64,000 nt of DNA from Spirochaetia bacterium. Lineage in GTDB: Bacteria > Spirochaetota > Spirochaetia > CADAEX01. The stretch spans positions 368 through 64,367 of the forward strand of contig JAGCPA010000089.1 of assembly GCA_017642445.1 (NCBI GenBank), written 5' to 3'. The notes beneath the pieces are model-generated. The model did no database searches. It was not told the origin of the DNA and worked only from the letters and a program-made list of their open reading frames with translations. A program made the translations under genes and the position numbers. This document shows positions 2,449-55,126 of this stretch, in pieces; the first letter of the stretch is position 1, and the number at the start of each line of letters is the position of its first letter.

Positions 2449-5400
2449 TCACGATGCATTATATTTCTTAAAGTTTTCGGCCTGCTCGAATACTTCGGCA
2501 TAAACCTCATTTCGTGGAACTGGCGGATAACCGTTCTCATCCAGCAGAATAATCAAATCAGACTCCAGCTCAGCCTTCACGTCAATACGCTGATCCCAGT
2601 CAGTATAACGGGTCTTGTCATCCACAAGCAGCTTAACTTTCTTAGCCAGGTCTTTCATCTTGTTGTCCGAATACTGGTTCTCGAAGTGGAATTTCTTAGC
2701 ACATGATACAAGAATATCGTAGAAAGCCTTTTCCTCAAACGAGATTCCCAGTTCTTTGAACTTTTCCTTATCCTTCAGAATATCATTGAACAGATCATTC
2801 AGTTGCTTTGTGACTTCATCAATTACTTTAACTGTGTATTCATCGTAATGGCGGTTATTGTAAGCATCCACCAGCTTCTTAAGCCGTTCCCCGAACTCCA
2901 TGGCTTTTATCTTGTTTGTCTTCTGGTAATCGCTTAACAGCATCTGAAGCAGATGATTCAGAAGCTTAACTTTTGTATTTGGCAGTTTCAGGCTGTTAAT
3001 TTTTTCCAAATATTTAGGGCTGAACAGGTCGACATTAATATTCTTGCCAACAGTAAACAGTTCCTCAACTCCATCGGACTTAATAGCTTCATCAATCAGC
3101 TGAGCCACATGATGGTTCATAGTGGTGATGTCCGGGGCATCGCCCTTTGTAAGTTTACAAAGGATGGAACGGACTGCAAGATAGAAACCGATGATATTCC
3201 TTTCTTCCTTAGAAATGTATTCGCTGGAAACACATAGATTATACGCTTTCTTAAGGATTTTGACAGCACGCATAAAACGCTTCTCCAAATCCTCTGTAGC
3301 CTGGACAAATTCAACAGCCCTGTTCAGGCATTCAAGCTGGGCAAGCGGCGAACCAGTATAATAAGCACTGGAATCAAATTTGCTTAACATGCCTTCCAGC
3401 ACACTTATCTGATCTTTCACTATGGAAACAGCTTTATCTGTATCCTCAAATTCATCATTATCGTCAGCAGTATAGCGCTTCAAGGCAGTATTCATGGCCT
3501 TTTTGATACCGATATAATCGACGATCAAGCCTTTGTCCTTGCCCTTGTAAGTGCGGTTTACACGGGAAATTGTCTGGATAAGGGTATGTTTCTGGAGAGG
3601 CTTATAGATGTAGATAGTATCAAGGCTTGGTACGTCAAAGCCAGTGATCCACATATCTACGACAATCGCAATCTTGAAATTTGATTTCTCATCCTTGAAC
3701 TGACGGTCCAGCTCCTTGCGGTATTCGTGGTTTCCTAAAAGTTCAAAGAGTCCCTTGGTATCCTTTGCCTTGTTCTCGGTCATAACCATCTTGACCATCT
3801 CGACAGGCTCTTTTCCTGCAGGTTTATTCCATTCAGGCCGCAGTTCCACTATCTTCTGCCACAGGCGATAGGCAATCTCTCTGTTAGAGCAGACAAACAT
3901 AGCCTTGCCCATAACAGTCGCCCCTTCCCTTACTCTGCTCTCATAATGCTGAATAAAATCTTTGGCAACGGCAGCAACCACATCTGGGTCGCCAAGTATG
4001 GCATCAAGGTTGGCCACAGCTTTCTTGCTCTGCTGAATCTGGAACTCGTTTGCTCCTTCCTCTTCGCACTGGGCATAATACCGTTCTATATCCTTAACTT
4101 TCTCCTGATCCAGGATAACTTTTGCGGCACGTCCCTCATATACCAGATTTACGGTAATACCGTCGGCAACCGATTCCTTCATAGTGTAGGTGTCGACTAT
4201 ATCGCCGAAGACAGGTCTCATATCATCAATAGGAGTTCCAGTAAAGCCGACATAAGTGGCATTGGGCAGAGAATCATGGAGATACCTGGCAAAGCCATAT
4301 TTATGCTCTACAATCCCTTTCTCCTCATTTATAACTATCCGTTCTTCCAGGTTGTTCTGGCTGCGGTGCGCCTCATCACTTATACAGATGATGTTAGAAC
4401 GGTCACTCAGAAGCTTGATATCCTCGCAGAACTTCTGGATAGTTGTAAGGAAAACACCACCGCTGTTCCGGCCCCGGAGTTTTTTCCCAAGGTCAACCCT
4501 GCTTTCTATGTTCTCTATGTTATCATCGCCGATATAGCTCCGGCTTTCCAGGAATATTTTCCCCAGCTGGTCATCCAGGTCTGTACGGTCAGTAATGACA
4601 ACAATTGTAGGGCTGTTCAATTCAGCTGACCGCATCAGAAGCCTGCTCAAGAAAACCATAGTGTAGCTTTTTCCACTTCCGGTGGCACCAAAATAGACAC
4701 CACCCTTTCCATCGCCAGCAGGTTTTAACGCCCTGTGAATGCTGGAGCAAAGAGCTTTTGTAGCAAAGAACTGGGGATACCGGCAGACTATCTTAATCTC
4801 TTTGCTTGTGGCATCCGGAAAGTATACAAAATCGTGTATCACGCTTACCAGCCGGTCTTTCCTGAACAATCCTCTGACCATTGTAATCAAAGAACTGATT
4901 CCATCAGCCTCTTTATCTGAGCTTTCCACCTTGCGCCATGCATAGAAATACTCATAAGGGCTGAACAAAGAACCAAGCTTGTTATTAACACCATCACTTA
5001 TCACAACAAAAGCGTTGTACTTAAAAAGTTCTGGAATATCACGGCGATATCGGATTGTAAGCTGCTTATAAGCATCCTCTATAGTAGTGTTCTCTTTAAT
5101 GGCAGACTTGAACTCAAGTACTACCATAGGAATACCATTCACATATACAATTCCATCAGGAATACGGAGCTGATCCCGCCCCTGAATCTCTATCTGGTTG
5201 ACTATCTCAAAGAAGTTGTTGTCAGGATTGTCAAAATCAATAAGCTGTATAAATAGGTCTTTTTTAGAAGCATCTTCCCTGCGCAATGTAAAGCCGTTGC
5301 ATATCAGGTCAAGGGTTGCACGGTTCGCATCATAATCGTTACCGGAGATATTCTTAAGGAGGGAAATAATGCTTTTGATCTCAGAATCAATCAGAGCTTC

Positions 5401-5556
5401 CTTAGCATACCGATGAAGAAGGTATTTTTCCAAAAGATAAGGAATAAGCACCTCTTTCTTCTCCCGGTGGATATCCCCGCCGGTCTGGTGCATGTATCCT
5501 TCGTTCTCAAACAGCTCTATTATTGAAAGTTCAAGCTGATGCTCGTCAAATTGCAT
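2449..5556 (-). CDS. hsdR: Type I restriction enzyme R subunit (HsdR).
   Basis: 1035 aa. Walker A GATGSGKSYT and DEAH box ISDEAHRSQ are present, with the N-terminal architecture of Type I R subunits. Confidence 0.9.
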   Translation of the reverse strand: MQFDEHQLELSIIELFENEGYMHQTGGDIHREKKEVLIPYLLEKYLLHRYAKEALIDSEIKSIISLLKNISGNDYDANRATLDLICNGFTLRREDASKKDLFIQLIDFDNPDNNFFEIVNQIEIQGRDQLRIPDGIVYVNGIPMVVLEFKSAIKENTTIEDAYKQLTIRYRRDIPELFKYNAFVVISDGVNNKLGSLFSPYEYFYAWRKVESSDKEADGISSLITMVRGLFRKDRLVSVIHDFVYFPDATSKEIKIVCRYPQFFATKALCSSIHRALKPAGDGKGGVYFGATGSGKSYTMVFLSRLLMRSAELNSPTIVVITDRTDLDDQLGKIFLESRSYIGDDNIENIESRVDLGKKLRGRNSGGVFLTTIQKFCEDIKLLSDRSNIICISDEAHRSQNNLEERIVINEEKGIVEHKYGFARYLHDSLPNATYVGFTGTPIDDMRPVFGDIVDTYTMKESVADGITVNLVYEGRAAKVILDQEKVKDIERYYAQCEEEGANEFQIQQSKKAVANLDAILGDPDVVAAVAKDFIQHYESRVREGATVMGKAMFVCSNREIAYRLWQKIVELRPEWNKPAGKEPVEMVKMVMTENKAKDTKGLFELLGNHEYRKELDRQFKDEKSNFKIAIVVDMWITGFDVPSLDTIYIYKPLQKHTLIQTISRVNRTYKGKDKGLIVDYIGIKKAMNTALKRYTADDNDEFEDTDKAVSIVKDQISVLEGMLSKFDSSAYYTGSPLAQLECLNRAVEFVQATEDLEKRFMRAVKILKKAYNLCVSSEYISKEERNIIGFYLAVRSILCKLTKGDAPDITTMNHHVAQLIDEAIKSDGVEELFTVGKNINVDLFSPKYLEKINSLKLPNTKVKLLNHLLQMLLSDYQKTNKIKAMEFGERLKKLVDAYNNRHYDEYTVKVIDEVTKQLNDLFNDILKDKEKFKELGISFEEKAFYDILVSCAKKFHFENQYSDNKMKDLAKKVKLLVDDKTRYTDWDQRIDVKAELESDLIILLDENGYPPVPRNEVYAEVFEQAENFKKYNAS

Positions 5557-5694
5557 TATGTCTCTCCTAAATTAATTAATACAGCATATTTTATATATTT
5601 AAAAAGGGGAAATCTCCATCTGCATCCGCATTTCGTTACATGTTGCTCTTTCTTCAAGAGACACTCCTAAAATATCCTTGAATAATCCTTTAGT

Positions 5695-8600
5695 TTATTC
5701 ATTTGTTGTTTCTATTTCCCTATTTCTATATTCTATGCCAAGTCTTTTTGCAAAATCTATGAACCTAGTATCTTCAGATTTATATTCTACCATTGTAGAA
5801 ATTTTCTCCTTGAAATCTTGTCCCTCATCTTCACTATTTTTTATCATTTTTATAACTATATCAGAATACGAAATTATTACTGAAATAACACAAGGTTTTT
5901 CCATGATTTTTATTGGTAAGATTCTTCTTAAAGCTTCTTTTTTAGCTGTAATATCGGAATACATAAATAGCCATTCACCAAAGAAATCAAATAACTCTTC
6001 AGTCATTTCATGTTTTCCATTGCAAAACAAATCTCGTATATCATTAAATAATGTTCTAAGATTTCTTTCGTTTTTTAACGCCAATGTTACTAATTCTACA
6101 GCTATATTCTTATTAAATTTAACATTCTCACTTTTAGCCTTACTAATCATCAATTCTTGGAATGCCTCATAACAATATTCATTCTTTAAAGCTAAGATAC
6201 AAATTAATTTATAATCATAGGATTCTGCTTCTATACTTTTCATCCAATCATTTTTATTTTTTTTCAATAAATATTCATTTGCTGTTTTATTACAATGCTC
6301 AAACAATTCATCTGGATTTTTCTTGGCATCCACAAAATAAGAAATAGGAATTTCTGATATATTCTCTACCGTTATTGTTTCATAAGAATCCCACCAATTG
6401 TAACATGAAATAATATATTGCGAATCCAATTTTGTTATGTCTTTTATAATTTGATAATCACAAAGTAATTTATGAAGAATTGCTACCTGATTATATTCAT
6501 TATTAGTAATTAATTCCTTGCAAAGTTCTATATATAAAGGATAGCCTTTCATTACGGAAATATTATGAAGCAAATTATCAAAATCTATATAATAATGTAT
6601 TTTACTAGCAATTCGCCTTATGAAATCTGTCTCAGTCTTAGTCATAATTTGGTTTACTAAAATACTGTTACCACCTTGGAAACTTGTCAACCTAGAAATA
6701 CGCATACATATTAAATCATAATAAAAATCCTCTTTAGGATTCAATTTTGCGAATAAATTCACTATGGCCGGATCTGGAATAATATGAGAAACAGGAAAAG
6801 CTAATTCTTTTAATCTTTCATACATTGCAGGAACTGTTTTTTCATCATTAGGGTTAGAATCAATTATTGCTTCTATTCTTGCTTTATAACCCCAAAAACT
6901 ATTTTCATTATCAATTTTAATATATTTAAATGCATTTAAAACTTTTAACGAATCTGAGCTTTGCTTTGATAAATATTTATCTAATTCATTAAAATTGCAG
7001 GTAATACTATATTGTTGATAATCTTCCTTTGCTAACTCAACAAATGTAATAAAATCTGCGGGTACAACTTCTTTTTTCACAAAAAAGTCTTGAATTGTAA
7101 GTCCAATTTTCAAATCCAAAAGACGCTTTAAGCTTAAAAAGTAATCTTCTATTTTGAAGTTAGATGAATTTGCAAATTCATCCAGTATTCGTTTTAAATA
7201 TTTATCTTTATTTGTTATTTTTGATATTAATATCTCTTGATATTCCTGTAGCATATTTTCAGAAGTATTAATTTGATCATATACACAATCCCATGTATTA
7301 ATTAAATTCATGTTAGGCCCATCCTCAAGAATTTCATTTAATACAATAACGGTATTGGGTATATTTGTAATTTTAGTAATAGCATTTTGTAGAATTGGAT
7401 AAAAATTATTTAAAGCTTTAATTTTTTGTAATAAATCGCTATTCTTATTATCAAGAGCTTTAACTATTTGGTCAGTATAAATCAAGTCTAAAGCTAGCTC
7501 TGGACTCAATTGGTAATAAAGAGCAGATAAATATTTCTGTAAATCTGCATCTTTCTCATACTTAAAATTTAAGGCACCTAAAAATGATGGAGTTAATATT
7601 TCTTTAGTTGGATTAGCTTGAATTTTATTCTTCCCAAAGATAAAGAGTGCAATATATTTATCTGGAATTTCAAATTTGTCAAATATTTTTCTAATGGAAA
7701 CAAATTCATTAATGAAAGCAATCATCTTTCTTGGAGTTTGATTATCAATTGTCAACAAATCATATATTTGTAAAACAGAATAATCGACATCTTCATTGAA
7801 TGCATATTTCCATAAATCATTAAAAAAAGCCTTCCAATTGGACATAGTAGGTAAAGAAACTCTAAAAACAACATTAAATGTTTTATTAATAAAATCGTCT
7901 CCATAAGAAACTAATTTTGTATCATAAGGTTTTGTATTACCAGTATTATCAGCATTTATTTCAATATTTTCTTCTTTAAATGCAGAAATTATATGATTTC
8001 TATCAAAAGGTACTATAACGTTAATATTGGGGGTATCATCATTAGCAAAAAGAATATTAATCATTGCCCATACTTCTTTTACTTTTTCAATTGGTAAACG
8101 ATCAATATTATCAAATACAATTATTAAACGATTGTTCTCCAATTTTTCATTAATACTTTTTATATAATCCTTAAACTCTCTTGTTGAGGCTTCTGATTCA
8201 TAAACTGTATTTGTTGAAATTGAATCTCCTGTTGACTTTGCATCATTCTTAAAATCATAATAACTGTGAAAAATCCATTGAAAAAAAGAAACTTCTGATT
8301 CTCCATATTTTTCCTTATATTTTTTCCAATAGTAAATAAGTAATAGTATATATATAGAAAAAAATCCAACAGAAATAATCAGTTGAAGCAAATGGTTCGT
8401 ATCATAATTTTTTTTAAACAAAAGATCTTTCAAAAAAGAGAATGCTATATAAGCAAAAGTCATTATTATACTTAATTTTGTAAATACATTTATTTCTTTT
8501 ACAATTCTTGAACCTATAGTTTCTTTGCGAGAAAGCAATCTTTTCAAACTATCATTCCAATCCCTTGAAAAACGAGGTCCTTCTTCATCTTTGATTAAAA

Positions 8601-8922
8601 AAGTAAGAAGGTTTTCAAGAACAGATCTTTTTAAATAATCATTTTGATATCCCCAAACATCATATGTATAAATAAAAAAATCATTAGTTTTTTGGCCATT
8701 TTTTTGTTTTAACTTGTCTTTTATCAGTTTTACTAAATTTGATTTACCTGAACCCCATGAACCTTCAATTCCAATTATGTTACAGTTTTCATTTGCTTTA
8801 AGTTGATTAACTATACAATTTGCAATTTTTTCGTGTGATTTCCCTTCAAAAGAATCTTCCCCACGTGGATTATTATTAATAAATATCGGATATTTTTTTT
8901 CTTTAACTTTTTCTTCTTTCAT
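5695..8922 (-). CDS. KAP-family P-loop NTPase, 1075 aa, with an intramembrane helix pair inserted in the NTPase domain and a long uncharacterised C-terminal extension.
   Basis: Walker A GIEGSWGSGKS lies at residues 51-61. Two hydrophobic helices (SIIMTFAYIAFSFL and LLQLIISVGFFSIYILLLIYYW) come before the Walker B-like IIVFDNIDRL. The start is 5 nt after the hsdS stop, with an AAGGGG RBS. The gene is extremely AT-rich. Confidence 0.8.
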   Translation of the reverse strand: MKEEKVKEKKYPIFINNNPRGEDSFEGKSHEKIANCIVNQLKANENCNIIGIEGSWGSGKSNLVKLIKDKLKQKNGQKTNDFFIYTYDVWGYQNDYLKRSVLENLLTFLIKDEEGPRFSRDWNDSLKRLLSRKETIGSRIVKEINVFTKLSIIMTFAYIAFSFLKDLLFKKNYDTNHLLQLIISVGFFSIYILLLIYYWKKYKEKYGESEVSFFQWIFHSYYDFKNDAKSTGDSISTNTVYESEASTREFKDYIKSINEKLENNRLIIVFDNIDRLPIEKVKEVWAMINILFANDDTPNINVIVPFDRNHIISAFKEENIEINADNTGNTKPYDTKLVSYGDDFINKTFNVVFRVSLPTMSNWKAFFNDLWKYAFNEDVDYSVLQIYDLLTIDNQTPRKMIAFINEFVSIRKIFDKFEIPDKYIALFIFGKNKIQANPTKEILTPSFLGALNFKYEKDADLQKYLSALYYQLSPELALDLIYTDQIVKALDNKNSDLLQKIKALNNFYPILQNAITKITNIPNTVIVLNEILEDGPNMNLINTWDCVYDQINTSENMLQEYQEILISKITNKDKYLKRILDEFANSSNFKIEDYFLSLKRLLDLKIGLTIQDFFVKKEVVPADFITFVELAKEDYQQYSITCNFNELDKYLSKQSSDSLKVLNAFKYIKIDNENSFWGYKARIEAIIDSNPNDEKTVPAMYERLKELAFPVSHIIPDPAIVNLFAKLNPKEDFYYDLICMRISRLTSFQGGNSILVNQIMTKTETDFIRRIASKIHYYIDFDNLLHNISVMKGYPLYIELCKELITNNEYNQVAILHKLLCDYQIIKDITKLDSQYIISCYNWWDSYETITVENISEIPISYFVDAKKNPDELFEHCNKTANEYLLKKNKNDWMKSIEAESYDYKLICILALKNEYCYEAFQELMISKAKSENVKFNKNIAVELVTLALKNERNLRTLFNDIRDLFCNGKHEMTEELFDFFGEWLFMYSDITAKKEALRRILPIKIMEKPCVISVIISYSDIVIKMIKNSEDEGQDFKEKISTMVEYKSEDTRFIDFAKRLGIEYRNREIETTNE

Positions 8923-8927
8923 TGTTT

Positions 8928-10055
8928 TTACCCCTTTAAAATCTGTGATATTACCAGCTGCTTTAATTCTTGCAGTTTAAAAATTTCTTTTTCATTACTA
9001 CTTATATTTTCGAAAATTGATGAAGCCTTTGTTTCATATTCTGTCATTTTTTCAAGATTGGGTTTAAATACTTTCTCCATCTCAAAATCTCTCGTTACAA
9101 GGGCACTAAAAACAGCTCCTGATGCTTTATTTTTTAATTTTGAAACAGCAAATTTTGAAAAGGAATATGTAAAGAAAGGATATTGCCCCTTTTTATCCTT
9201 TAATGCATAGCAAGATTGATTCATTGCCATTGGTTTCCCTGCCAATGCCAGTTTTCCTACAGTTCCACGACATGTAACAAAGGTTGTATTTTCAGGATAT
9301 AATTTGCTTGAACAATTATTTAAGCCTTCTTCTGTAAGAGTTTTATCAGTCCTAAAACAGTAAATAGATTTATCAATATCGGCTGGTGCAAAAAAAGATA
9401 TATTTCCATTCCAATATGCATTTTCAGTTGTACAAGGAGTTCCACCACCTAATAAATCAATTACATCAGTAAAGGATATCTCTTCTTTTTGTAATTCATG
9501 TTTAAATATGTTCTCAAACAAACACTGTGCTGTCTTTTCCAGCTTTTCATTAATCTTCTGTAAAATATCAATCCGGCGAGTAATGGTGTTGTAGTTATTT
9601 ATAATTTTCTGCTGTTCGGTTATAGACGGAACTGCAAGTTTCATATCACAAAAAACTTCCCATGGCATACTTCCTCGAACTCCACCAACAGCAACATATG
9701 AGGCTTCCCTGTCAAATTCAGTTCTCATAAACCACATGGCAAGATAATCTGGTAAAACCTCAAATGTGTTTTTTATTCTGAAAATATAATAGGCCGGGGA
9801 CATAATTGCTTCATCATACTCTTTTAGACAAGCAATAGGTATTTTCCCATCTCGACTAACTTGCATTAATGAACAGGCAAAATCATTTTTATGAATTACG
9901 CTATATTTTGACAAGTCAGTTCCAATTGTATTTGCCACAGATTTTATAAAGCATTTATCAATACTAACTCCAATCAAATTTTGAACTTTTCCATCTGTAT
10001 TTCGTTCATCTATGAGTTCAACAATTTCACTTAACTTTCTATAATTTGCCTTCAT
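8928..10055 (-). CDS. hsdS: Type I restriction-modification specificity subunit (HsdS) with two target-recognition domains.
   Basis: 375 aa. It shows the Methylase_S two-TRD pattern and sits 8 nt downstream of the hsdM stop. Confidence 0.8.
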   Translation of the reverse strand: MKANYRKLSEIVELIDERNTDGKVQNLIGVSIDKCFIKSVANTIGTDLSKYSVIHKNDFACSLMQVSRDGKIPIACLKEYDEAIMSPAYYIFRIKNTFEVLPDYLAMWFMRTEFDREASYVAVGGVRGSMPWEVFCDMKLAVPSITEQQKIINNYNTITRRIDILQKINEKLEKTAQCLFENIFKHELQKEEISFTDVIDLLGGGTPCTTENAYWNGNISFFAPADIDKSIYCFRTDKTLTEEGLNNCSSKLYPENTTFVTCRGTVGKLALAGKPMAMNQSCYALKDKKGQYPFFTYSFSKFAVSKLKNKASGAVFSALVTRDFEMEKVFKPNLEKMTEYETKASSIFENISSNEKEIFKLQELKQLVISQILKG

Positions 10056-10063
10056 TTTCTACC

Positions 10064-11668
10064 TTATAGTTTTATCTCATACCCAAGTTCCTTAAATACA
10101 GCAAGAAGCTCTTTTTTATTCTCCTCTTCTGCCTTAAACAATTCTGTCAATTCTGATTGCAGTTGTTTCATACTTGTTTCAAAATTTTCAGTCTCATCCC
10201 TGTTTACAAATTCTATATATCTGCTTGGAACAAGGTTATATCCTTTCTCTGCAATCTCCTTCTTTGTCGCGCTGTAACAGAATTCAGGAATATCGTTATA
10301 ATCCTTGTAGGTATCGGTCTGTTGCCAAGAGTGGAATGTACCAGTCACTTTATCCCGGTCGGTCTGTGTAAGCTCGATATATTTTTTTTCAAATGGTGAA
10401 CCCATCTGGCGTAAATCCATGAACAGGACTTCTTCTTCCCTGTTTCTATAGTTCTTGACAATACCGTTATGATCAACAATGCGGGCTTTTTTGTTCTTGT
10501 TTATTATCCAGAGAGTTACACTAATATTTGTAGTATAAAAAAGGTTCCTTGGCAGAATGACTATTGCTTCCACAAGATTGTTCTCTATAAGCTGCTTACG
10601 TATTTCAAGTTCCTGCCCTTCACCGCTCAATGCTCCGTTTGCCAGCAGAAATCCGGCAACTCCATTTGTACTGAGCTTGCTTACCATGTGCAGAATCCAC
10701 CCATAATTTGCATTGCTTGTAGGTGGCACCACATAACCTCTCCAGCGGGCATCATCTACAAGCTCATTCTCTGCACGCCAGTCCTTCTGGTTGAATGGGG
10801 GATTTGCCATGATATAGTCGGCCCTAAGGTCGGGATGCAAGTCATTTGTGAAAGAATTTGCAGCTTTTTCTCCCAGATCGCAGGGAATACCGCGGATAGC
10901 CAAGTTCATCTTGGCCATCTTATAAGTAGTAGTTATTCCTTCCTGCCCATAGACAGAAATATCTTTGGCACTTCCGGCATGGCTTTCCACAAACTTTAAG
11001 GACTGAACAAACATACCGCCGGAACCGCAGCATGGGTCATAAATCTTACCTTTATATGGCTCGATCATTTCGGCAATAAGGTTTACCACCGATTTAGGCG
11101 TGTAGAATTCTCCTTTGCCTTTTCCCTCCTGGATAGCAAACTTTGTAAGGAAGTATTCGTATACCCGGCCCATGATATCGTTTTCTTTGTCCGCATCGGT
11201 CTGGATATTGTTTATTTCATCCAGAAGCGAAGCCAGCTTGGAGACATCAAGGCTCAACCTGGAATAGTAGTTGTCTGGCAAAGCTCCCCGAAGGCTGGGG
11301 TTCTGTTTTTCTATTGTGCTTAGGGCAGTATCAATCTTGATAGCAATATCGTTCTGCTTTGCATTCTGCATTATATACGACCAGCGGCTTACCTCTGGCA
11401 GGAAGAATACATTCTTCATGGTGTAGAATGACTGGACATCCACATATTTTTCCTTGCCGTCTGCAATAAGCTCCTTGCGCCTGGTCTCGAACTTGTCGTT
11501 TACAAACTTAAGGAATATAAGGCTTAAAACTACATGCTTATACTCTGCAGGCTCAACTGTACCCCGCAACTTGTCACAGGCACCCCAAAGGGCATCTTCA
11601 AAGCTGATTTGTTTTTTTACTTTTGCCATAAGATATTCTACCATATTTTTCTTTATTCTCAGTAACAA
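10064..11668 (-). CDS. hsdM: Type I restriction-modification N6-adenine DNA methyltransferase (HsdM).
   Basis: NPPF motif (IMANPPFNQKDW), a SAM-binding region, and a HsdM N-terminal domain. The true start may be the internal MAKVKK at 11629. Confidence 0.9.
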   Translation of the reverse strand: MLLRIKKNMVEYLMAKVKKQISFEDALWGACDKLRGTVEPAEYKHVVLSLIFLKFVNDKFETRRKELIADGKEKYVDVQSFYTMKNVFFLPEVSRWSYIMQNAKQNDIAIKIDTALSTIEKQNPSLRGALPDNYYSRLSLDVSKLASLLDEINNIQTDADKENDIMGRVYEYFLTKFAIQEGKGKGEFYTPKSVVNLIAEMIEPYKGKIYDPCCGSGGMFVQSLKFVESHAGSAKDISVYGQEGITTTYKMAKMNLAIRGIPCDLGEKAANSFTNDLHPDLRADYIMANPPFNQKDWRAENELVDDARWRGYVVPPTSNANYGWILHMVSKLSTNGVAGFLLANGALSGEGQELEIRKQLIENNLVEAIVILPRNLFYTTNISVTLWIINKNKKARIVDHNGIVKNYRNREEEVLFMDLRQMGSPFEKKYIELTQTDRDKVTGTFHSWQQTDTYKDYNDIPEFCYSATKKEIAEKGYNLVPSRYIEFVNRDETENFETSMKQLQSELTELFKAEEENKKELLAVFKELGYEIKL

Positions 11669-13025
11669 AACTGTTCAAATCTGAAAAATCAATATTGTAA
11701 ATTAAATTTTTGTCCAGTTCTTTTTTCTTGAGGAACATGACCATATAAATCGGCAGATAGGTCACACTCCCCTTTTTCTCGATATTTCCGTTGCAGAACA
11801 CATATCCGGCTTTCAGTCCATATTCCTTATTGCCAATCAGGTTGTTCATAGCTTTATGCCGATAATAATCCTTCCCAGATTTGACCTCGATAGGGATAAC
11901 CTTATCATCACACTCAACAAGAAAATCCAGCTCGCCGAACTTCTTGCTGTTGTAGTAGTACAGTGCAAAACCATGGGCAGACAGCTCCTGGGCCACCATA
12001 TTCTCATAGATGGCACCGAAGTTTATATCAATCTTCTGCTCAAGTATTTTTACCTGTATACCATCTGCATACTGGGAAGCTAAAAGTCCCACATCGCCCA
12101 TAAAAAGCTTGAACAGATTAGTTGCCTTGGAGATAACCAGCGGAATCTGCGGTTCTTCTGCCACATAAACAGGCAGAGCCACACCGGCATTCTTGAGCCA
12201 TAGGAAACTGTTATTGAACTTCTTTATCTTTGCGTTCTCGTTCAGTTTCTTAAGGATAAACCGCTTGTTCTTAGAATTCAGCTCACTTGGGATAAGGTCA
12301 AAAATCTCGTTAAGGTACAGTTTTTCCTCTTTATCGTATTTAGAGATATCTTTTTTATACAGCTCTATGATATTTTTCTGGACATCCAGCACTGAATAGA
12401 GATTATTGCTGTTTACAAATGTCTCTACAGAGGCAGGCATTCCCCCTATTATCAGATACAGCCGGACAAGCTCAAGCATTCTGTTATGGATAAAACTGTC
12501 TACCGGGGTCTTGGTGTCAAAAGAGTACTTCAAGGCATCTATAACCTTGTCGTCCACCCCATTGGCCCAGGCAAACTCCTCAAAATCCAGAGGGAACATC
12601 TGCAGAATCCCCATGTACCCGACCGGTACAGAAAGGAGATCGTTGAAAATAACACCAAGCAGAGAACCGCTTAAGATATAGGTATACCGGCCATCCTGTA
12701 CCAGATACTTGATCTGGGTGACAATCTCCTTGCATTCCTGGACTTCATCAAAGAAAATCAGAGTTTTTCCGGGAACCATATCTTTTCCGAATACAGAGGA
12801 TATTCTTAACAATAATTCATCTGCGCCCAGAGCTCCATCGAACAACTTCTTATACTCAGGATTTTTTATGAAGTCAATTTTTATGAAGGATTTGAACCGC
12901 TTTTTGGCATACTGTTCTATGATGTAAGATTTGCCCACCTGCCTGGCGCCTGTTATAAGGAGGGCTCTGTTGGGGTTATCCCTGTAGAAATCATAGATTT
13001 TATCAAGTATCTTACGTCTTAACAT
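11598..13025 (-). CDS. AAA-family ATPase with a DUF4143 C-terminal domain.
   Basis: Walker A LITGARQVGKSY and Walker B LIFFDEVQ. The overall architecture matches the DUF4143 ATPase family. Its 3' end overlaps the hsdM start by about 30-70 nt. Confidence 0.75.
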   Translation of the reverse strand: MLRRKILDKIYDFYRDNPNRALLITGARQVGKSYIIEQYAKKRFKSFIKIDFIKNPEYKKLFDGALGADELLLRISSVFGKDMVPGKTLIFFDEVQECKEIVTQIKYLVQDGRYTYILSGSLLGVIFNDLLSVPVGYMGILQMFPLDFEEFAWANGVDDKVIDALKYSFDTKTPVDSFIHNRMLELVRLYLIIGGMPASVETFVNSNNLYSVLDVQKNIIELYKKDISKYDKEEKLYLNEIFDLIPSELNSKNKRFILKKLNENAKIKKFNNSFLWLKNAGVALPVYVAEEPQIPLVISKATNLFKLFMGDVGLLASQYADGIQVKILEQKIDINFGAIYENMVAQELSAHGFALYYYNSKKFGELDFLVECDDKVIPIEVKSGKDYYRHKAMNNLIGNKEYGLKAGYVFCNGNIEKKGSVTYLPIYMVMFLKKKELDKNLIYNIDFSDLNSFVTENKEKYGRISYGKSKKTNQL

Positions 13026-25031: not shown

Positions 25032-26323
25032 TCACACCTCAAAACCGATGCCGGATTCTTGACATCCAGCTTTTTGACTGCCATATATGCAGAGACCAAC
25101 GCTGCAAAGAACGCAAAGAAGAATGCAAACATAACCTCGCTGAACACAACCTGGACCGGCACCTCCTGGATGTAGAAATAGGCTGGCGAGAAGAGCTGGA
25201 ACTGAACCCCAGCAAAGTCGAACAGGTCGCCGAACAGCCTCTCGAACACCTGTCCAGGCCAGGAGACCACCTTTCCTGCTATTGCAAAGATTGCATTCAG
25301 ATTTATCGAGATAAGGAGCCCCAGGGCAACCCCCAGAGTCCCTCCTAAAAGTCCTACGAAAGCCCCTTCGGTTATGAAGATACGCCGCATATCATGCTCA
25401 CGTACCCCCAATGAATAGAGCACTGCGATATCCTCTATCTTCTCCGACACAGAGCGGCGCATGAAGTTGTAGATATTGACTCCGATGACCACAAAGATAA
25501 GGCAGATCAGGAACATCATTGCATACTTCTCCATCCGCAGCGCTCCGAAGAAAGCCTTGTTGTATTCCCGCCAAGAGATGGCCTGTGCGCCGGTTATGGC
25601 AGAAAGCCGTTCCACCAGGGCCTTGTCCCTGTACAGGTTGTTCAGCTTTATTCCAAGTTTGAAATCTGCCGGACCGCTCTGGAGCATCGGAACGCTCTCC
25701 AGGGACATGATGGCAAGATTCCTGTCGTATTCGTAATAGCCTGTCTTGAAGATGCCGGTGACCTTGAAGTCTATGTTCTGCGGCTTGAGGGAGTTGAAAG
25801 TCTCGCCCGACAGGGCCATGACCACAAAACTGTCGCCAACTTTAAGACGCAGGTACCGGGCCAGCTCGCTCCCCATAACCACGCTGTTGGCCCCCTTAAG
25901 ATTGAAGGCGCCGCCTGTCAGTTTAAGATGCTGCATAAAGCCTGCATCAAGGGAGGCGGCATCGGGGTCCACACACCGCACATTGATCGGACTCATGCGT
26001 GAGAGCCCGCCCTGGGACAGCACCTGGATATCGGCAAAGCGGACACAGCTCTTGACTCCCCGCTCGCTGCGGACTGCATCCTCGAACTCGGGGGGAACAT
26101 CCTGGGCATCTATGCGGATATGGTAGGAGCCGATCTCCAGGATAGATGAGATATAGCCCATCTGGAGACCGTTCATTACAGAGATTACAGTTATAAGGGT
26201 AAGGACACCGGCAGCCAGCCCCAGGGCCGACAGAATCTGAGTCACGTTCTTGCTGTCCCGCTCCCTTCCCCATAGATACCGGGAAGAGAGGAAGGTTATC
26301 CACCTATGCCTTGCTTTTCCCAT
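25028..26323 (-). CDS. ABC transporter permease of the FtsX-like family (LolC-like).
   Basis: The same architecture as the permease at 23113..24357. The two permeases flank the ATPase gene with 4 nt overlaps. Confidence 0.7.
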   Translation of the reverse strand: MGKARHRWITFLSSRYLWGRERDSKNVTQILSALGLAAGVLTLITVISVMNGLQMGYISSILEIGSYHIRIDAQDVPPEFEDAVRSERGVKSCVRFADIQVLSQGGLSRMSPINVRCVDPDAASLDAGFMQHLKLTGGAFNLKGANSVVMGSELARYLRLKVGDSFVVMALSGETFNSLKPQNIDFKVTGIFKTGYYEYDRNLAIMSLESVPMLQSGPADFKLGIKLNNLYRDKALVERLSAITGAQAISWREYNKAFFGALRMEKYAMMFLICLIFVVIGVNIYNFMRRSVSEKIEDIAVLYSLGVREHDMRRIFITEGAFVGLLGGTLGVALGLLISINLNAIFAIAGKVVSWPGQVFERLFGDLFDFAGVQFQLFSPAYFYIQEVPVQVVFSEVMFAFFFAFFAALVSAYMAVKKLDVKNPASVLRCE

Positions 26324-49085: not shown

Positions 49086-50693
49086 TTATTTTTTTAACAT
49101 CTTCTCGCTTTTTGCCACAGTCAGGACTGCTATCAGAACGCCGAATACCCCACCTGGTGTTCCAAGCATATCAATAATCGGATCGATTCCCACTATAAGC
49201 CCCAGGGCCTCAATTGGGCAACCTGCCATTGTCAACAGCGATGACAGCAGGATAATACCCACCCCCGGTATTCCAGGCATAGCTATTACAAGAATAACTG
49301 TAGACAGTACCAGCGAAATAATCTTCAGGAACGGCATAGCAATACCATAAATGTTTGCTATTGAGCAGACAACAATCACTATATAAAGGCACAAAGTGCT
49401 TTTAAAAATAGTCATTCCTATCGGGATAGAGAACTTATACATTTTGGGGGATACACCCAGATTCTCAGCAGCCTGCATGGCATCCGGCATAGAGGCTATA
49501 CTTGAAGCGGTTGTAAAGCTGGTCAACAGCATCTGCATCGATTTTTTAAGCACCATAAAAGGATTAAACCCAAGGAAAACAGTAATAAGACTATAAAGCA
49601 GGAAAAGCAGCAGATTGGCAATAATAGCAGTATAGAAAATTCCCAGGACAGAAAGCAGCACCTTGGATCCTGTCATAATCAGCATAGATGAAACAGAACA
49701 GAAGACAAACAGCGGAAGAAGATGTATGAAGAATCCGATAATCTTCATAAAAAGCCTGTTGACTTCATCAAAGATTGAAGAGACAATTTTTATCCTGCAG
49801 GCTCCACATGCCACTCCGATCAGAATTGCCAGAGCTATCAGCTGAATCATATTCCCTTCTGCAAAGGGTCTGATGATATTGTTCGGCACCACATCAACAA
49901 GAACATTCCTTATTGACAGCAGATTGCCCTGAACTGCATCGGAGCTCAAAGCGGCAGTCAGATGTATTCCGACTCCTGTTTTGAACAGCTTAACCACCAA
50001 GTACCCTAAGAATGAAGCAAAGACCATCAGAACAGAAAAAACAGCAAACAGCTTGAAAACAATCCTCTTTATTCCGGACAAACTGTCTGTCTGAGTAAAG
50101 CAGGTGACAATAGAAAAGAAGACAACCGGTACTGCACACAGCTTAAGACCGTTCATGAATATTGTGCTGAAAGACTGGAAAATGTTCTCATTGACAAAGC
50201 TGCAGAACTGTTCCGGCAGCAGATATTTCATGACAGTCCCGGTAACAATTGCAAGGATCATTGCTGTCAATATTAAATACAGATTGAAATACTGGGAGCG
50301 GAAAGCCTGGATCCGGACAGTATTATAATCACCTGAATGCCGGAAGCTTATCTTGTCGCCAAGGGATCGTAAAATAATGCTCTGTATGGCCTCTGCTGTC
50401 TCATCATCGTTCTCTATATCATCAAAATCAGGCTTGGGCAAAAATTCAAAATCATTTCCAGGAACCCGCATATCTATGCTGACATTGCCTAAAAATTTAA
50501 TAATGTTGAGGGAAATATTTTTTTTCTTGGAAAAATCACCATGCTCGATCAGCCGCATCAGCACTTCTTCGCATGTCAGCTCTGCACGCAGTCTCTCTTT
50601 TGAATCAAGCTTAAAATCTTTAAGAGTCTGACGGTTAAAATCCAGAATCTCCTGAATTGTCTCTTGGCCTTTCATATCAAATCTTTTCTGCAT
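49086..50693 (-). CDS. Dicarboxylate/amino-acid:cation symporter (SDF family) with an extra N-terminal cytoplasmic domain of about 130 aa.
   Basis: The C-terminal 400 aa have SDF topology. The N-terminal domain has no TM segments. The gene is AT-rich. Confidence 0.7.
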   Translation of the reverse strand: MQKRFDMKGQETIQEILDFNRQTLKDFKLDSKERLRAELTCEEVLMRLIEHGDFSKKKNISLNIIKFLGNVSIDMRVPGNDFEFLPKPDFDDIENDDETAEAIQSIILRSLGDKISFRHSGDYNTVRIQAFRSQYFNLYLILTAMILAIVTGTVMKYLLPEQFCSFVNENIFQSFSTIFMNGLKLCAVPVVFFSIVTCFTQTDSLSGIKRIVFKLFAVFSVLMVFASFLGYLVVKLFKTGVGIHLTAALSSDAVQGNLLSIRNVLVDVVPNNIIRPFAEGNMIQLIALAILIGVACGACRIKIVSSIFDEVNRLFMKIIGFFIHLLPLFVFCSVSSMLIMTGSKVLLSVLGIFYTAIIANLLLFLLYSLITVFLGFNPFMVLKKSMQMLLTSFTTASSIASMPDAMQAAENLGVSPKMYKFSIPIGMTIFKSTLCLYIVIVVCSIANIYGIAMPFLKIISLVLSTVILVIAMPGIPGVGIILLSSLLTMAGCPIEALGLIVGIDPIIDMLGTPGGVFGVLIAVLTVAKSEKMLKK

Positions 50694-52818: not shown

Positions 52819-54426
52819 TCACAACGTATTCTCAGACAGATACTGCTTCAATTCCTCGATAAGCTTGTCGCCATCCAGATTGTAGAACAGCTTCTCAAAG
52901 CATCCTGTTATCATAGGATTCAGGTCCAGGCCGAACTCCACCGACCTGGCATCGGTCTTGAAGCCATAGCATCTCTTGCCGTTGGCATAGCCGATGCCCA
53001 GCTCCACGCAGGCTCCCTCATCAGGTACCCTGCCATCAAGCATTATAAATATAATATCTGCCTTCAGCACCTCTTCCAAATCCTTCTGGAAGATCTTGTT
53101 CATGGCCTCTTCCTGAGTCATCCCCTGTATTTCCGGGGCCAGATAACCGTCGCGCTGGGGCAGGAAAACCCCGTAGCCATAGCTTTCCAGAATATTTGTT
53201 ATCTTAAGGTTGTAGTCCTTCTCGCTCTGGTTGAACAGCGGTGCCGCAAAATACACCTTATTGCCGGTCTTGACTGAGGCTGCCGCCTGAGCAGGCTTTT
53301 CTCCATCATCAGCTTCAAGAACCTTTGTTATAGCTGGAATGAAGACTGCCTTTCTGGAGGCATAAGGTTTGATTATGAAGGATTTGCCGTCAAAATGAGC
53401 CTTGTCTCCAAAGGCAGCCTTAAGCACTTTTTCTTCCTCTTCGCCAGCTGGCACCAGATAGGTCACTGAAATATCATCATGCAGGACACTGACCATGGAA
53501 AAACACATATCCATCCCTTTGTCAGGCTTGATCAAAGGCATCACTGCATGCATGCGCAAAGCCAGATCTTTCGCTGTCTCCTCATCAAATGCATTCACAT
53601 TGCCTACAGCAACATTTCTGCCCCCGATGAAATACTCCTTGTAATCTGAAAGGAAGATCTCCTCGTCCACCTTCCCCTCATAAGAAAGGAGTGCGCTGAA
53701 CATCCCTTGGTAGAAAGCCCCGGGATCCGAAATGCCACCCAGCCGGCTGAGCTCCTTCACTGCCTCCCGGTCTGCAAATGTTGTGGTGTCTGACTTAAGG
53801 TTCTTGGTATCGGACAGAATCGATCCCAGCATCATGACCGCACTCTGCCTGTCAGGCTCTATGCCATAGTTTCTATACCGCAGCCAGACTATTGTGGCGG
53901 CAGAACCCAGGGGACGGGCATCGAAGATAAGCGGATTGGCTGTCATGACAGATCCAGCCCCGTGATGATCAATGATGCTTATGATATTTGCATTCTTAAG
54001 GCCATCAGCCGACTGGGTGTGCTCGCTGTGATCCACCAGAACCATATTAAGGCCTGAAGCATCCTTCAGCAGCTTGGGCGGCTCAAGCCCGGCCACCTCC
54101 AGGATATAGGCGCTCTCGTTATTCACAGGCCCCAGGACAACCGGCTCCGCATCGTAGCCCAGCTTATTAAGCAATGCGGCATATGCGATGGAGCTGCCGA
54201 CAGTATCCGAATCGGGGCTCTTATGCCCTGTGACATAGATCTTCCCCTCAATATTACCCAAGCCCTCAAGATCGCTCCGGTTCAGGAGAATACTGAGGTT
54301 TTTCTCATTCTTATAATATGAATCTTCCTTAGATTTTCCAACATAGAATCCTGTAGAACCCACTGCGGCGAGCAGGATGACAATACATCCAAGTGTTATC
54401 CAACGCTTTTTTTCAGGCATTTTCAA
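52819..54426 (-). CDS. Membrane-anchored DHH/DHHA2 phosphoesterase (family II pyrophosphatase-like) fused to a nucleoside 2-deoxyribosyltransferase-like domain.
   Basis: N-terminal TM anchor. DHH motifs HKSPDSDTVGS and IIDHHG. C-terminal VYFAAPLFNQSE...DEGACVELGIGYANGK resembles the NDT/DNPH1 fold. Confidence 0.65.
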   Translation of the reverse strand: MKMPEKKRWITLGCIVILLAAVGSTGFYVGKSKEDSYYKNEKNLSILLNRSDLEGLGNIEGKIYVTGHKSPDSDTVGSSIAYAALLNKLGYDAEPVVLGPVNNESAYILEVAGLEPPKLLKDASGLNMVLVDHSEHTQSADGLKNANIISIIDHHGAGSVMTANPLIFDARPLGSAATIVWLRYRNYGIEPDRQSAVMMLGSILSDTKNLKSDTTTFADREAVKELSRLGGISDPGAFYQGMFSALLSYEGKVDEEIFLSDYKEYFIGGRNVAVGNVNAFDEETAKDLALRMHAVMPLIKPDKGMDMCFSMVSVLHDDISVTYLVPAGEEEEKVLKAAFGDKAHFDGKSFIIKPYASRKAVFIPAITKVLEADDGEKPAQAAASVKTGNKVYFAAPLFNQSEKDYNLKITNILESYGYGVFLPQRDGYLAPEIQGMTQEEAMNKIFQKDLEEVLKADIIFIMLDGRVPDEGACVELGIGYANGKRCYGFKTDARSVEFGLDLNPMITGCFEKLFYNLDGDKLIEELKQYLSENTL

Positions 54427-54709
54427 CCCCGTACCGGCTGATCACGGTATCAACCACATATTTTTTCTTAAGATCACCTAAAGCCTTGAAATGCTCTGTT
54501 TCCCAATGCTGCTTAAGCACCTCTTCGGATGCCCACAGCTCAATGAGCAGAAGTTCATTCTTGTTGTCAGGGCTGTAGAAGTAATCGTATTTCTCGTTTC
54601 CTTTCTCCGCCCTGGATGCTGCGGCAACACCGCTTTCCATAATTGCGCGGTAGAATTCGTCCCGCTTCCCATCCTTAAGATAATAATGAACCTCGATAAA
54701 CTGCTTCAT
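54413..54709 (-). CDS. Antibiotic-biosynthesis-monooxygenase (ABM) domain protein.
   Basis: 98 aa ferredoxin-like ABM pattern. Confidence 0.65.
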   Translation of the reverse strand: MKQFIEVHYYLKDGKRDEFYRAIMESGVAAASRAEKGNEKYDYFYSPDNKNELLLIELWASEEVLKQHWETEHFKALGDLKKKYVVDTVISRYGVENA

Positions 54710-54759: not shown

Positions 54760-55008
54760 TTAAAAAGGTCTGGCGAAAGGACAGTTACTCCAGCATGGTC
54801 CCTGTGAGCCGCCGGCAACTTTTTCCAGATCCTTGCTGTCCATTTCCAAATTAGCCATCTCGGCAAGATATGCTTCTGCCTCTTCTTTGGTTATCTCATA
54901 GCCCTCTGCTTTTGCCAGTGCAATCAGTTCATCTGCTGTCTTGCACTCCAGTGCCTTCTCCAGCTGCTGTTTTGTAAGTTTGCTTCTATCGATTTCTGCC
55001 ATAATCAT
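54760..55008 (-). CDS. Nif11-type leader peptide precursor with a double-glycine site (candidate RiPP precursor).
   Basis: Leader LTKQQLEKALECKTADELIALAKAEGYEITKEEAEAYLAEM, then ...LEKVAGG, followed by the core SQGPCWSNCPFARPF. Confidence 0.5.
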   Translation of the reverse strand: MIMAEIDRSKLTKQQLEKALECKTADELIALAKAEGYEITKEEAEAYLAEMANLEMDSKDLEKVAGGSQGPCWSNCPFARPF

Positions 55009-55126
55009 CCTCTAAATTTCAGTATAATATGAGCTTTTTTCTACCGTCAAGTTAAAAAAAATAATTGAAAAAACCAACAATATATAGTAAAATTTTTTTG
55101 TTTTTATTTTTTTTATGGGGGATTTT

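Follow-up and report, generated by a model that had tools for sequence, protein, structure and literature searches.

Precursors of peptides synthesized by ribosomes and modified after translation (RiPPs) that carry Nif11-type leaders (N11P), their scattered paralogues, NHLP exporters and radical S-adenosylmethionine (radical SAM) maturases are already known (PMC2887384, PMC7268733, PMC11002830). The leader consensus sequences of N11P and of class II double-glycine peptides were tabulated by Haft et al. 2010 (PMC2887384), spliceotide cores contain an Xaa-Tyr-Gly motif (PMC11002830), and CteB, the enzyme with which we compare structures below, forms a thioether (5why/5wgg). Here, we analyzed a stretch of 64,000 nucleotides from a Spirochaetia bacterium (contig JAGCPA010000089.1, positions 368 to 64,367), hereafter the window, and asked how a short open reading frame (ORF) on its minus strand, which an initial annotation had presented as an orphan RiPP precursor, compares to these systems. 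Judged from its sequence, the gene is almost certainly a functional N11P precursor, and the best explanation is that it is a satellite copy in a system of many precursors, for which the enzymes are encoded outside the window. Taken alone, the gene is an ordinary, recognizable N11P precursor, and NCBI already labels its close relatives as such. The features of the gene are:

54760 to 55008, minus strand: precursor ORF as first called, 82 aa and a stop codon (PF07862, 28.5 bits; TIGR03798, 35.9 bits)
54760 to 55002, minus strand: most likely true coding sequence, 80 aa (MAEIDRSK...PF) and a stop codon, from the second ATG, 6 nt after AGAGG (80 aa called in L095, L096 and L097; the homologue P0002 starts MAEI)
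54808 to 55002, minus strand: leader of 65 aa, Nif11 domain and double-glycine motif (the conserved part of alignment A1 stops at GG)
54808 to 54813, minus strand: Gly-Gly codons, the cleavage site of a C39 peptidase-ABC protein as predicted from how the family is defined (PMC2887384); in A1, G67 never varies and G66 hardly does
54763 to 54807, minus strand: core SQGPCWSNCPFARPF, 15 aa, with a C-W-x-N-C-P motif (C[WY] and CW.NCP are enriched in family cores)
55009 to 55013, minus strand: ribosome-binding site AGAGG, read from the sequence
55021 to 55050, minus strand: sigma-70-like promoter match TTGACG-18-TATACT, 10 of 12 positions, a consensus match only

The minus-strand ORF translates to MIMAEIDRSKLTKQQLEKALECKTADELIALAKAEGYEITKEEAEAYLAEMANLEMDSKDLEKVAGGSQGPCWSNCPFARPF, and the reading frame of 82 aa, the leader end DLEKVAGG and the core are exactly as first quoted. 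The real product, however, is probably the 80-aa form that starts MAEI at 55002, because AGAGG directly abuts the first ATG and stands 6 nt before the second, and because gene callers agree on this start in three other assemblies. The transcription start implied by the sigma-70-like match would coincide with the ribosome-binding site. The last 13 residues of the leader, with M(-12), D(-8), L(-7), V(-4), G(-2) and G(-1), match the N11P motif ELSDEELEAVAGG (Table 3, PMC2887384) and fit the class II double-glycine consensus too. The core is laid out SQGP-CWSNC-PFARPF, a Cys-aromatic dipeptide with a second Cys four residues on, and holds two Ser and two Cys. Its computed linear mass is 1695.729 Da; because one disulfide and one radical-SAM crosslink would each remove 2.016 Da, the measurement of mature core mass that was initially proposed cannot by itself tell these two apart. 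The GC content of the gene (0.466) is similar to that of the window (0.476).

Two curated models support the assignment to the Nif11-type double-glycine precursors: the ORF scores 28.5 bits against Pfam PF07862 (Nif11; gathering cut-off 23.8) and 35.9 bits against NCBIfam TIGR03798 ('Nif11-like leader peptide family RiPP precursor'; cut-off 32.3), and it matches the family hidden Markov model (HMM) built in this analysis with E = 1e-43. A sequence search returned 943 relatives, nearly all of 72-93 aa. These homologues are not full-length Nif11 proteins with an invariable end, the finding that would have spoken against a precursor; in alignment A1, conservation is strong up to GG and is lost afterwards except for one Cys column, and the cores vary. 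The same boundary is seen in nucleotides, where the window gene is 75-83% identical to its paralogues in the leader and only 55-65% in the core. An identical peptide is present in the metagenome-assembled genome (MAG) 'Spirochaetia bacterium RGIG9769' from yak omasum, which belongs to the same species (locus L009), and in total five independent assemblies carry it. The gene is, by sequence comparison, under purifying selection, because all differences between it and its relatives L009 (94.8% identical; five differences) and L094 (two differences) are synonymous.

To place the gene within its family, we scanned species-representative genomes and kept 80 loci; owing to this limit and to the fragmented MAGs, the number of genomes given below in which a maturase lies near a precursor is a lower bound. 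The scan yielded 78 further loci, every one from ruminant gut MAGs or isolates, and their hosts are Spirochaetia, Selenomonadales, Acidaminococcaceae, Succiniclasticum, Lachnospiraceae and one Saccharibacteria MAG. S. ruminis DSM 9236 of Succiniclasticum is a cultured host, and Selenomonas sp. AB3002 and KH1T6 likewise carry the system in culture. With the leader HMM, 88 sequences (the 87 loci L001-L087, as fetched, and the window) gave 252 precursor ORFs, of which up to 11 stand in one tandem array. Paralogous precursors, which had been suggested as a thing to search for, are abundant: RGIG9769 holds at least 22 in five loci, and RGIG3334 holds 29. The precursor family is restricted to bacteria of the ruminant fore-stomach, with a conserved leader and diverse cores. 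It is not typically phage-borne, as only five precursor relatives (L107-L111) were found in 2.9 million viral contigs. Our literature search found no paper describing this rumen family, and a 2026 survey of Hungate1000 bacteriocins makes no mention of Nif11.

Among 176 distinct cores, 158 contain Cys and 18 do not. The strongest signal is a Cys-Tyr/Trp dipeptide (C[WY]), which occurs in 111 cores as compared to a mean of 30 and a maximum of 46 after shuffling; it usually occupies position 2 or 4 of the core, and the next Cys follows 4-6 residues on. The CW.NCP subtype comprises 10 cores including that of the window gene (shuffle mean 0.0). The thioether motif C-x-x-[DN] is modestly enriched (65 cores; shuffle mean 39, maximum 55), the cyclophane motif [WY]-x-[DN] shows no enrichment once the C[WY] context is taken out, and no enrichment of Ser or Thr was found in the distinct cores. 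The GCYPDCPKDYCFEN core is shared by Spirochaetia and Acidaminococcaceae, and the genes that encode it are only about 71% identical in nucleotides (range 66-72%), which rules out a recent transfer across phyla; the core is nonetheless invariant. Certain core types do not change at all between phyla even though their leaders do, and at least some mature peptides are therefore under tight functional constraint. We also observed that the core GCYPDC[PK][KN]DYCFEN is identical or near-identical in Spirochaetia, Acidaminococcaceae and Selenomonadales (L024 9995-10231; L028 2984-3220; L005 10001-10237; L017 11494-11730), where the genes are just 66-79% identical in nucleotides; conservation is thus higher in the core than in the leader, the opposite of the usual RiPP pattern.

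To identify enzymes that recur next to precursors, we clustered all flanking ORFs against each other. One recurrent peptide-modifying enzyme was found, a protein of about 505-550 aa with a radical SAM and a SPASM domain, which lies no more than 10 kb from precursors in 18 loci of 10 of the 27 genomes, including all five Spirochaetia genomes; RGIG9769 holds three copies (L012, L031 and L035). No LanM, LanB, LanC or LanKC was found among the recurrent neighbours or the ORFs of at least 650 aa in L001-L087, nor in the Pfam neighbour tables for L088-L101. The enzyme scores 69 bits against Radical_SAM and 53.6 bits against SPASM TIGR04085 (cut-off 27), and it has CxxxCxxC (CNFRCPYC) at residue 105 together with CX13GX4C and CX2CX5CX3C, the full SPASM motifs. 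In its AlphaFold model (pLDDT 90.8), an N-terminal module of three strands and three helices resembles a RiPP recognition element (RRE). The best match in the PDB, by both sequence and fold, is CteB (fold E about 1e-17 over about 470-490 columns), followed by anSME, TigE and SuiB. The nearest NCBIfam models are TIGR04463 and CefB, maturases named for Cys-rich targets, then Clo7bot and PapB. The scores of the enzyme against curated models are:

TIGR04463: 149 bits (cut-off 525)
CefB: 129 bits (cut-off 600)
Clo7bot: 124 bits (cut-off 600)
PapB (NF047865): 109 bits (108.6; cut-off 340)
DynA: 105 bits (cut-off 450)
TIGR04064 ('nif11-like peptide radical SAM maturase'): 65-73 bits (cut-off 518.7)
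SCIFF maturase TIGR03974: 68.3 bits (cut-off 425)

The enzyme is also far below the YhhB cut-off of 445. Because it misses the cut-off of every curated NCBIfam family, it is, on these sequence scores, an uncurated subfamily; its 353 relatives at E <= 1e-20 are all labelled just 'radical SAM protein'. Of the paralogues in RGIG9769, the one whose leader is nearest to that of the window gene (71% identity) sits immediately upstream of a radical SAM gene; its core, VCWSNCPTESSC..., shares the CWSNCP motif of the window core. As a separate observation, the C-terminal 45 or so residues of the enzyme (P0121, about 465-500; L031 8473-9993) read SRLTEaERetiMTTxSQKEifxIxKxxG and form three short helices in the model; they gave a weak hhalign match to the N-terminal helices of the Nif11 leader (P = 0.002, probability 14%, 36 columns).

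The window itself contains no radical SAM enzyme, C39-ABC protein or OEP outer-membrane protein. When the radical SAM enzyme, the SPASM-only protein described below, C39-ABC, ABC2 and OEP of the family were used as BLASTP queries against window ORFs of at least 80 aa, they found generic ABC ATPases only; with DUF7005, FAD reductase and TauE proteins also queried, the whole set returned only these ATPases and the SDF fusion. The CxxxCxxC motifs of the window are confined to two ORFs that much longer opposite-strand ORFs overlap; neither is likely to be a gene. Both scans agree with the initial statement that no modification enzyme or C39 transporter is visible in the window. The label 'orphan', however, is true within these 64 kb and does not extend beyond them. 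The metagenome scaffold_244 (L095, 79,078 bp) matches window positions 60693-39239 with its positions 19418-41025 at 99.88% identity over 21.6 kb, and it carries an identical precursor at 25109-25351 and a radical SAM/SPASM maturase (P0121) in a precursor array at 619-2163. Because 22.9 kb separate enzyme and precursor on scaffold_244, the enzyme would, by this alignment, sit about 14 kb past the right end of the window. The methodological lesson is that 'orphan' calls from a fixed window can be edge effects.

A further contig, L088, overlaps the end of scaffold_244 at 99.98-100% identity and extends the cluster, whose genes are, in order:

TauE
240-aa protein
SDF fusion
two precursors
radical SAM/SPASM enzyme
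precursor
DUF7005
279-aa protein
precursor
RlmN
then, on the other strand, SPASM-only protein, OEP, periplasmic binding protein and TIGR03797-like ABC protein

The block on the other strand is syntenic with a block of L048 (80% nucleotide identity), which ends in a C39-ABC gene. In L048, the C39-peptidase ABC protein scores 993.5 bits against TIGR03796 (cut-off 853.3) and ABC2 scores 754 against TIGR03797 (cut-off 709); the locus also has a periplasmic binding protein, which had been considered as an HlyD protein, a TolC-like OEP and a 534-aa protein with solely a SPASM-like C-terminus. In L018, TIGR03797 reaches 749 bits, again with a cut-off of 709. The NHLP-type export pair is thus present at the level of the family (L048, L018), and for the window strain L088 supplies a TIGR03797-like ABC protein and an OEP, with the C39 subunit predicted from synteny with L048. 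The second radical SAM gene of the cluster was rejected as a peptide maturase; it is RlmN (TIGR00048, 326 bits, cut-off 290), an rRNA methyltransferase found within the radical SAM/precursor cluster at L088 7733-8758 and L035 6380-7456. This RlmN could be a housekeeping copy, and a Cfr-like role in self-protection is only a thought. The SPASM-only protein (530-640 aa) has a marginal SPASM-like C-terminus (26 bits, cut-off 27), no other Pfam domain and no CxxxCxxC; we observed it in six genome loci and on L088 (L035 7406-9010; L048 830-2428; L088 8708-10312; also L023, L049, L060 and L077), and in three Spirochaetia loci it adjoins OEP and ABC exporter genes.

We propose that the leader of the window peptide would dock it on the radical SAM/SPASM enzyme, which would act in trans, by analogy with ProcM acting on scattered prochlorosin precursors. 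The enzyme would add one or more intramolecular crosslinks in the core, of which the most probable would be a thioether that joins the sulfur of a Cys with a carbon in a nearby residue, of the ranthipeptide or sactipeptide type. An NHLP-family pair of C39 peptidase and ABC proteins (TIGR03796 and TIGR03797), with an outer-membrane channel, would then cut after GG and secrete the 15-mer into the rumen, where it may act on other bacteria as a bacteriocin or a signal. Maturation in trans by a radical SAM/SPASM enzyme and export with GG cleavage by an NHLP-type system is the course that we consider rather probable. The Cys thioether is favoured as the modification because the nearest relatives and the best structural match of the enzyme point that way; we put it forward tentatively, with a confidence that stays short of even. 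Several points weigh against this proposal. The action of the enzyme in trans on the window peptide is argued from analogy, and the enzyme lies near a precursor in just 10 of the 27 genomes (a lower bound). Its scores are far below all curated cut-offs, so that homology is too weak to assign its chemistry; DynA, which makes C-C and ether crosslinks, scores nearly as high as PapB, and crosslinks of the C-C type centred on Trp or Tyr are possible. Several Cys-free cores (NAYSEGYGND, TGPYDAQRPKRIE), of the 18 in the 176, adjoin the enzyme, which implies either that a Cys thioether is not the sole reaction or that not all precursors are substrates. Finally, the C39 exporter is known from related genomes and from synteny, and not from a contig proven to belong to the window strain.

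The main rival to maturation in trans is that the Nif11 leader is a double-glycine signal for export and cleavage, that the 15-mer is unmodified or has a Cys5-Cys9 disulfide, resembling a class II bacteriocin or a peptide pheromone, and that the radical SAM enzyme serves other family members. The fit of the last 13 leader residues to the class II consensus, the many family cores without Cys or C[WY], the many precursor loci (most of them) without an enzyme within 10 kb and the histidine kinases that recur beside Negativicutes arrays, which would suit signalling, are all consistent with this. In contrast, the window core bears the most enriched motif of the family, its CWSNCP paralogue with the closest leader lies directly upstream of a radical SAM gene, and a conserved leader of 65 aa is much longer than export needs. 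The rumen is strongly reducing, and a lone disulfide would be unstable there. We therefore consider export without enzymatic modification unlikely, yet a serious contender. The kinases are sensor histidine kinases, including hybrid PAS kinases, and adjoin Negativicutes arrays in L005-L007, L017, L051, L054 and L085; some have an N-terminal segment that, judged by eye, resembles an amino-acid permease. Their position is compatible with a signalling role for some of the peptides.

The window gene might also be a displaced leftover copy that is no longer expressed or processed. The window holds no enzyme, and strains differ in how many and which precursors they have in this chromosomal slot, which lies beside a TRAP transporter: the window, L009 and L010 have one precursor, L001 has two, L004 has at least three and L011 has none, and the cores differ. 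However, the frame is intact, the ribosome-binding site and a promoter-like site are in place, and a gene whose five differences from L009 are all synonymous, with its peptide identical in five independent assemblies, does not look silent. Decay is thus very improbable.

Even less probable is that the two genes downstream on the same strand form a local tailoring operon with the precursor, in which an ABM monooxygenase and a DHH-NDT protein would modify or process the peptide. The genes are:

54413 to 54709, minus strand: ABM monooxygenase, 50 nt from the precursor
52819 to 54426, minus strand: DHH-NDT protein, overlapping the ABM gene by 14 nt

The gap and the overlap had been given correctly in the initial annotation. 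Because there is no terminator and no stable hairpin (z = -0.24) between precursor and ABM gene, read-through into the ABM and DHH-NDT genes is plausible in the window strain. Cotranscription, which had been suggested from the geometry, is therefore possible; it carries no functional weight, however, as the arrangement is strain-specific. In L009, from the same species, 1.56 kb and two opposite-strand ORFs (154 aa and 248 aa) separate the precursor from the ABM gene, and the NDT protein is an unfused 190-aa lipoprotein with no DHH part. In L010, an opposite-strand ORF also lies between precursor and ABM gene; in L011, the ABM gene remains beside the TRAP genes while the precursor is elsewhere, adjoining an SDF paralogue; and L001 has two precursors and no ABM gene. 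An NDT-like protein does occur near precursors in three Negativicutes contexts, at 62-65% identity, but apart from NDT in these few loci neither protein recurs among the neighbours of the family, and no RiPP chemistry that involves a DHH or an NDT domain is known to us. On the basis of synteny (L009, L010, L011 and L001), the two proteins were rejected as functional partners, and we treat them as bystanders, strain-specific accidents of synteny. Regarding the proteins themselves, a DHH-DHHA2 phosphoesterase is fused to the NDT-like domain only in the window strain (52819-54426, minus strand); the NDT proteins of relatives are stand-alone and lipoprotein-like, of 179-190 aa (L009 2979-3551; L010 11356-11895), and the Negativicutes protein is an exported one (L057/L066, L083 and L085).

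Least probable of all is a prochlorosin-like lanthipeptide, in which a LanM with its gene elsewhere would dehydrate Ser1 or Ser7 and link it to Cys5 or Cys9; the core has the two Ser and two Cys for this, and cyanobacterial N11P leaders serve LanM, often from distant loci (PMC2887384, PMC7268733), but the recurrent or large neighbours in L001-L087 and the Pfam neighbour tables for L088-L101 include no LanM-, LanB- or LanKC-like protein, the sole recurring peptide maturase is the radical SAM/SPASM enzyme, and Ser and Thr are not enriched in cores.

Fourteen distinct precursors of the family have a different architecture, in which a Nif11 leader, GG and a Cys-rich core of 12-22 aa are followed by a Hint (intein/hedgehog-type) domain of about 140 aa. 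This domain starts C-F-[AT]-G-D-S and scores 35.8 bits against Pfam Hint_2 (cut-off 28.4), and in 5 of the 14 a truncated second Nif11 segment is found at the end. Examples are L035 1914-2708; L029 243-1022, 1633-2337 and 2698-3375; L021 2298-3080; L025 2943-3722; and L044 215-994; further ones are L064 9257-9976; L016 630-1334; L018 8878-9582; L051 9171-9875; and L061 2134-2817. A search for literature combining 'Nif11' and 'Hint domain' found no paper. We speculate that an N-S acyl shift by the Hint domain would leave a thioester at the C-terminus of the core, which would allow self-release or cyclization.

The SDF fusion is a transporter of the SDF family (PF00375) at window 49086-50693 (minus strand) with a 140-aa N-terminal domain that Pfam does not recognize. 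The model of this domain (pLDDT 85) has the fold of the anti-sigma-factor kinases SpoIIAB/RsbW/UsfX (TM 0.69-0.75, E = 3e-5). Paralogues directly adjoin precursor arrays in 14 loci, mostly of Spirochaetia (including L031 4508-7830; L032 3345-6671; L088 1656-3299; L011 2798-4384). The fusion was rejected as a general partner, because no Nif11 genes adjoin its homologues in Synergistaceae, Sarcina and Lachnospiraceae; a link to precursors, if any, would thus be specific to Spirochaetia. A sigma-70-like ORF, judged by eye, lies within the L036 array, with a similar one in L068. Elsewhere in the window, we observed a type I restriction-modification operon and its neighbours:

2449 to 11668, minus strand: whole operon, with hsdM (10064 to 11668), hsdS (8928 to 10055) and hsdR (2449 to 5556)
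5695 to 8922: KAP-family P-loop NTPase, 1075 aa, inserted between hsdS and hsdR
1321 to 2448: Fic/HTH protein
11598 to 13025: DUF4143 AAA ATPase

When we compare this system to those already described, the prochlorosin/N11P systems (ProcA and ProcM; TIGR03798, PMC2887384) are alike in their long Nif11-type leader with a Gly-Gly end, their hypervariable short cores, their paralogues, which number dozens in a genome and in many cases lie far from the enzyme, and the NHLP-type TIGR03796/03797 exporters of the family. In contrast, the enzyme of the rumen family is a radical SAM/SPASM protein and not LanM, the hosts are anaerobic Spirochaetia and Negativicutes and not cyanobacteria, and the rumen cores share a Cys-Tyr/Trp motif, with some core types 100% conserved across phyla while the leader drifts. 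With ranthipeptides and sactipeptides (CteA/CteB thermocellin, PapA/PapB freyrasin, SCIFF), the rumen family shares a radical SAM/SPASM enzyme with an RRE-like N-terminal domain and two auxiliary-cluster motifs, Cys-rich cores and a maturase encoded with the precursors (18 loci; 22.9 kb from the copy of the window gene in scaffold_244). However, its enzyme falls outside the characterized PapB and SCIFF maturase families, below their cut-offs, the thioether is putative, and the leader is of the Nif11 type and not of the SCIFF or Pap type. TIGR04064 systems also pair a Nif11-leader peptide with a radical SAM enzyme; the score of 65-73 bits against a cut-off of 518.7 nevertheless sets the rumen enzyme apart as a different, uncurated subfamily.

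Class II double-glycine bacteriocins and pheromones (TIGR01847 type, exported by C39 peptidase ABC proteins) resemble the window peptide in the last 13 or so leader residues and in the logic of GG cleavage, but they have short leaders (about 15-30 aa) and no maturase, as compared to a 65-aa leader with a folded Nif11 domain and family clusters with radical SAM/SPASM here. Cyclophanes of the triceptide/dynobactin type, which join an aromatic residue to the beta-carbon of residue +2, are approached by W-S-N in the window core, which fits aromatic-X-X, and by the 105 bits against DynA; [WY].[DN], however, is unenriched outside C[WY], and the DynA and YhhB cut-offs (450 and 445) are far from reached. 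Spliceotides, made by PlpX-type radical SAM enzymes on NHLP/Nif11 leaders, differ in that the window core has no Tyr and hence no Xaa-Tyr-Gly.

The window gene is an entry to a large, apparently undescribed peptide system, with hundreds of precursor variants and a maturase outside the curated families. It is conceivable, if doubtful, that the whole family is a previously undescribed RiPP class: a prochlorosin-like combinatorial library of rumen anaerobes with an uncurated radical SAM/SPASM enzyme, a new crosslink centred on Cys-Tyr/Trp, spread across phyla, Hint-fused precursors (possibly giving C-terminally activated or cyclized peptides) and, in Spirochaetia, anti-sigma/SDF fusions that serve as dedicated partners. 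Should its chemistry prove new, the system would parallel, with a radical SAM enzyme, the prochlorosin model in which one enzyme serves many substrates, and its peptides would be candidate natural modulators of the rumen community.

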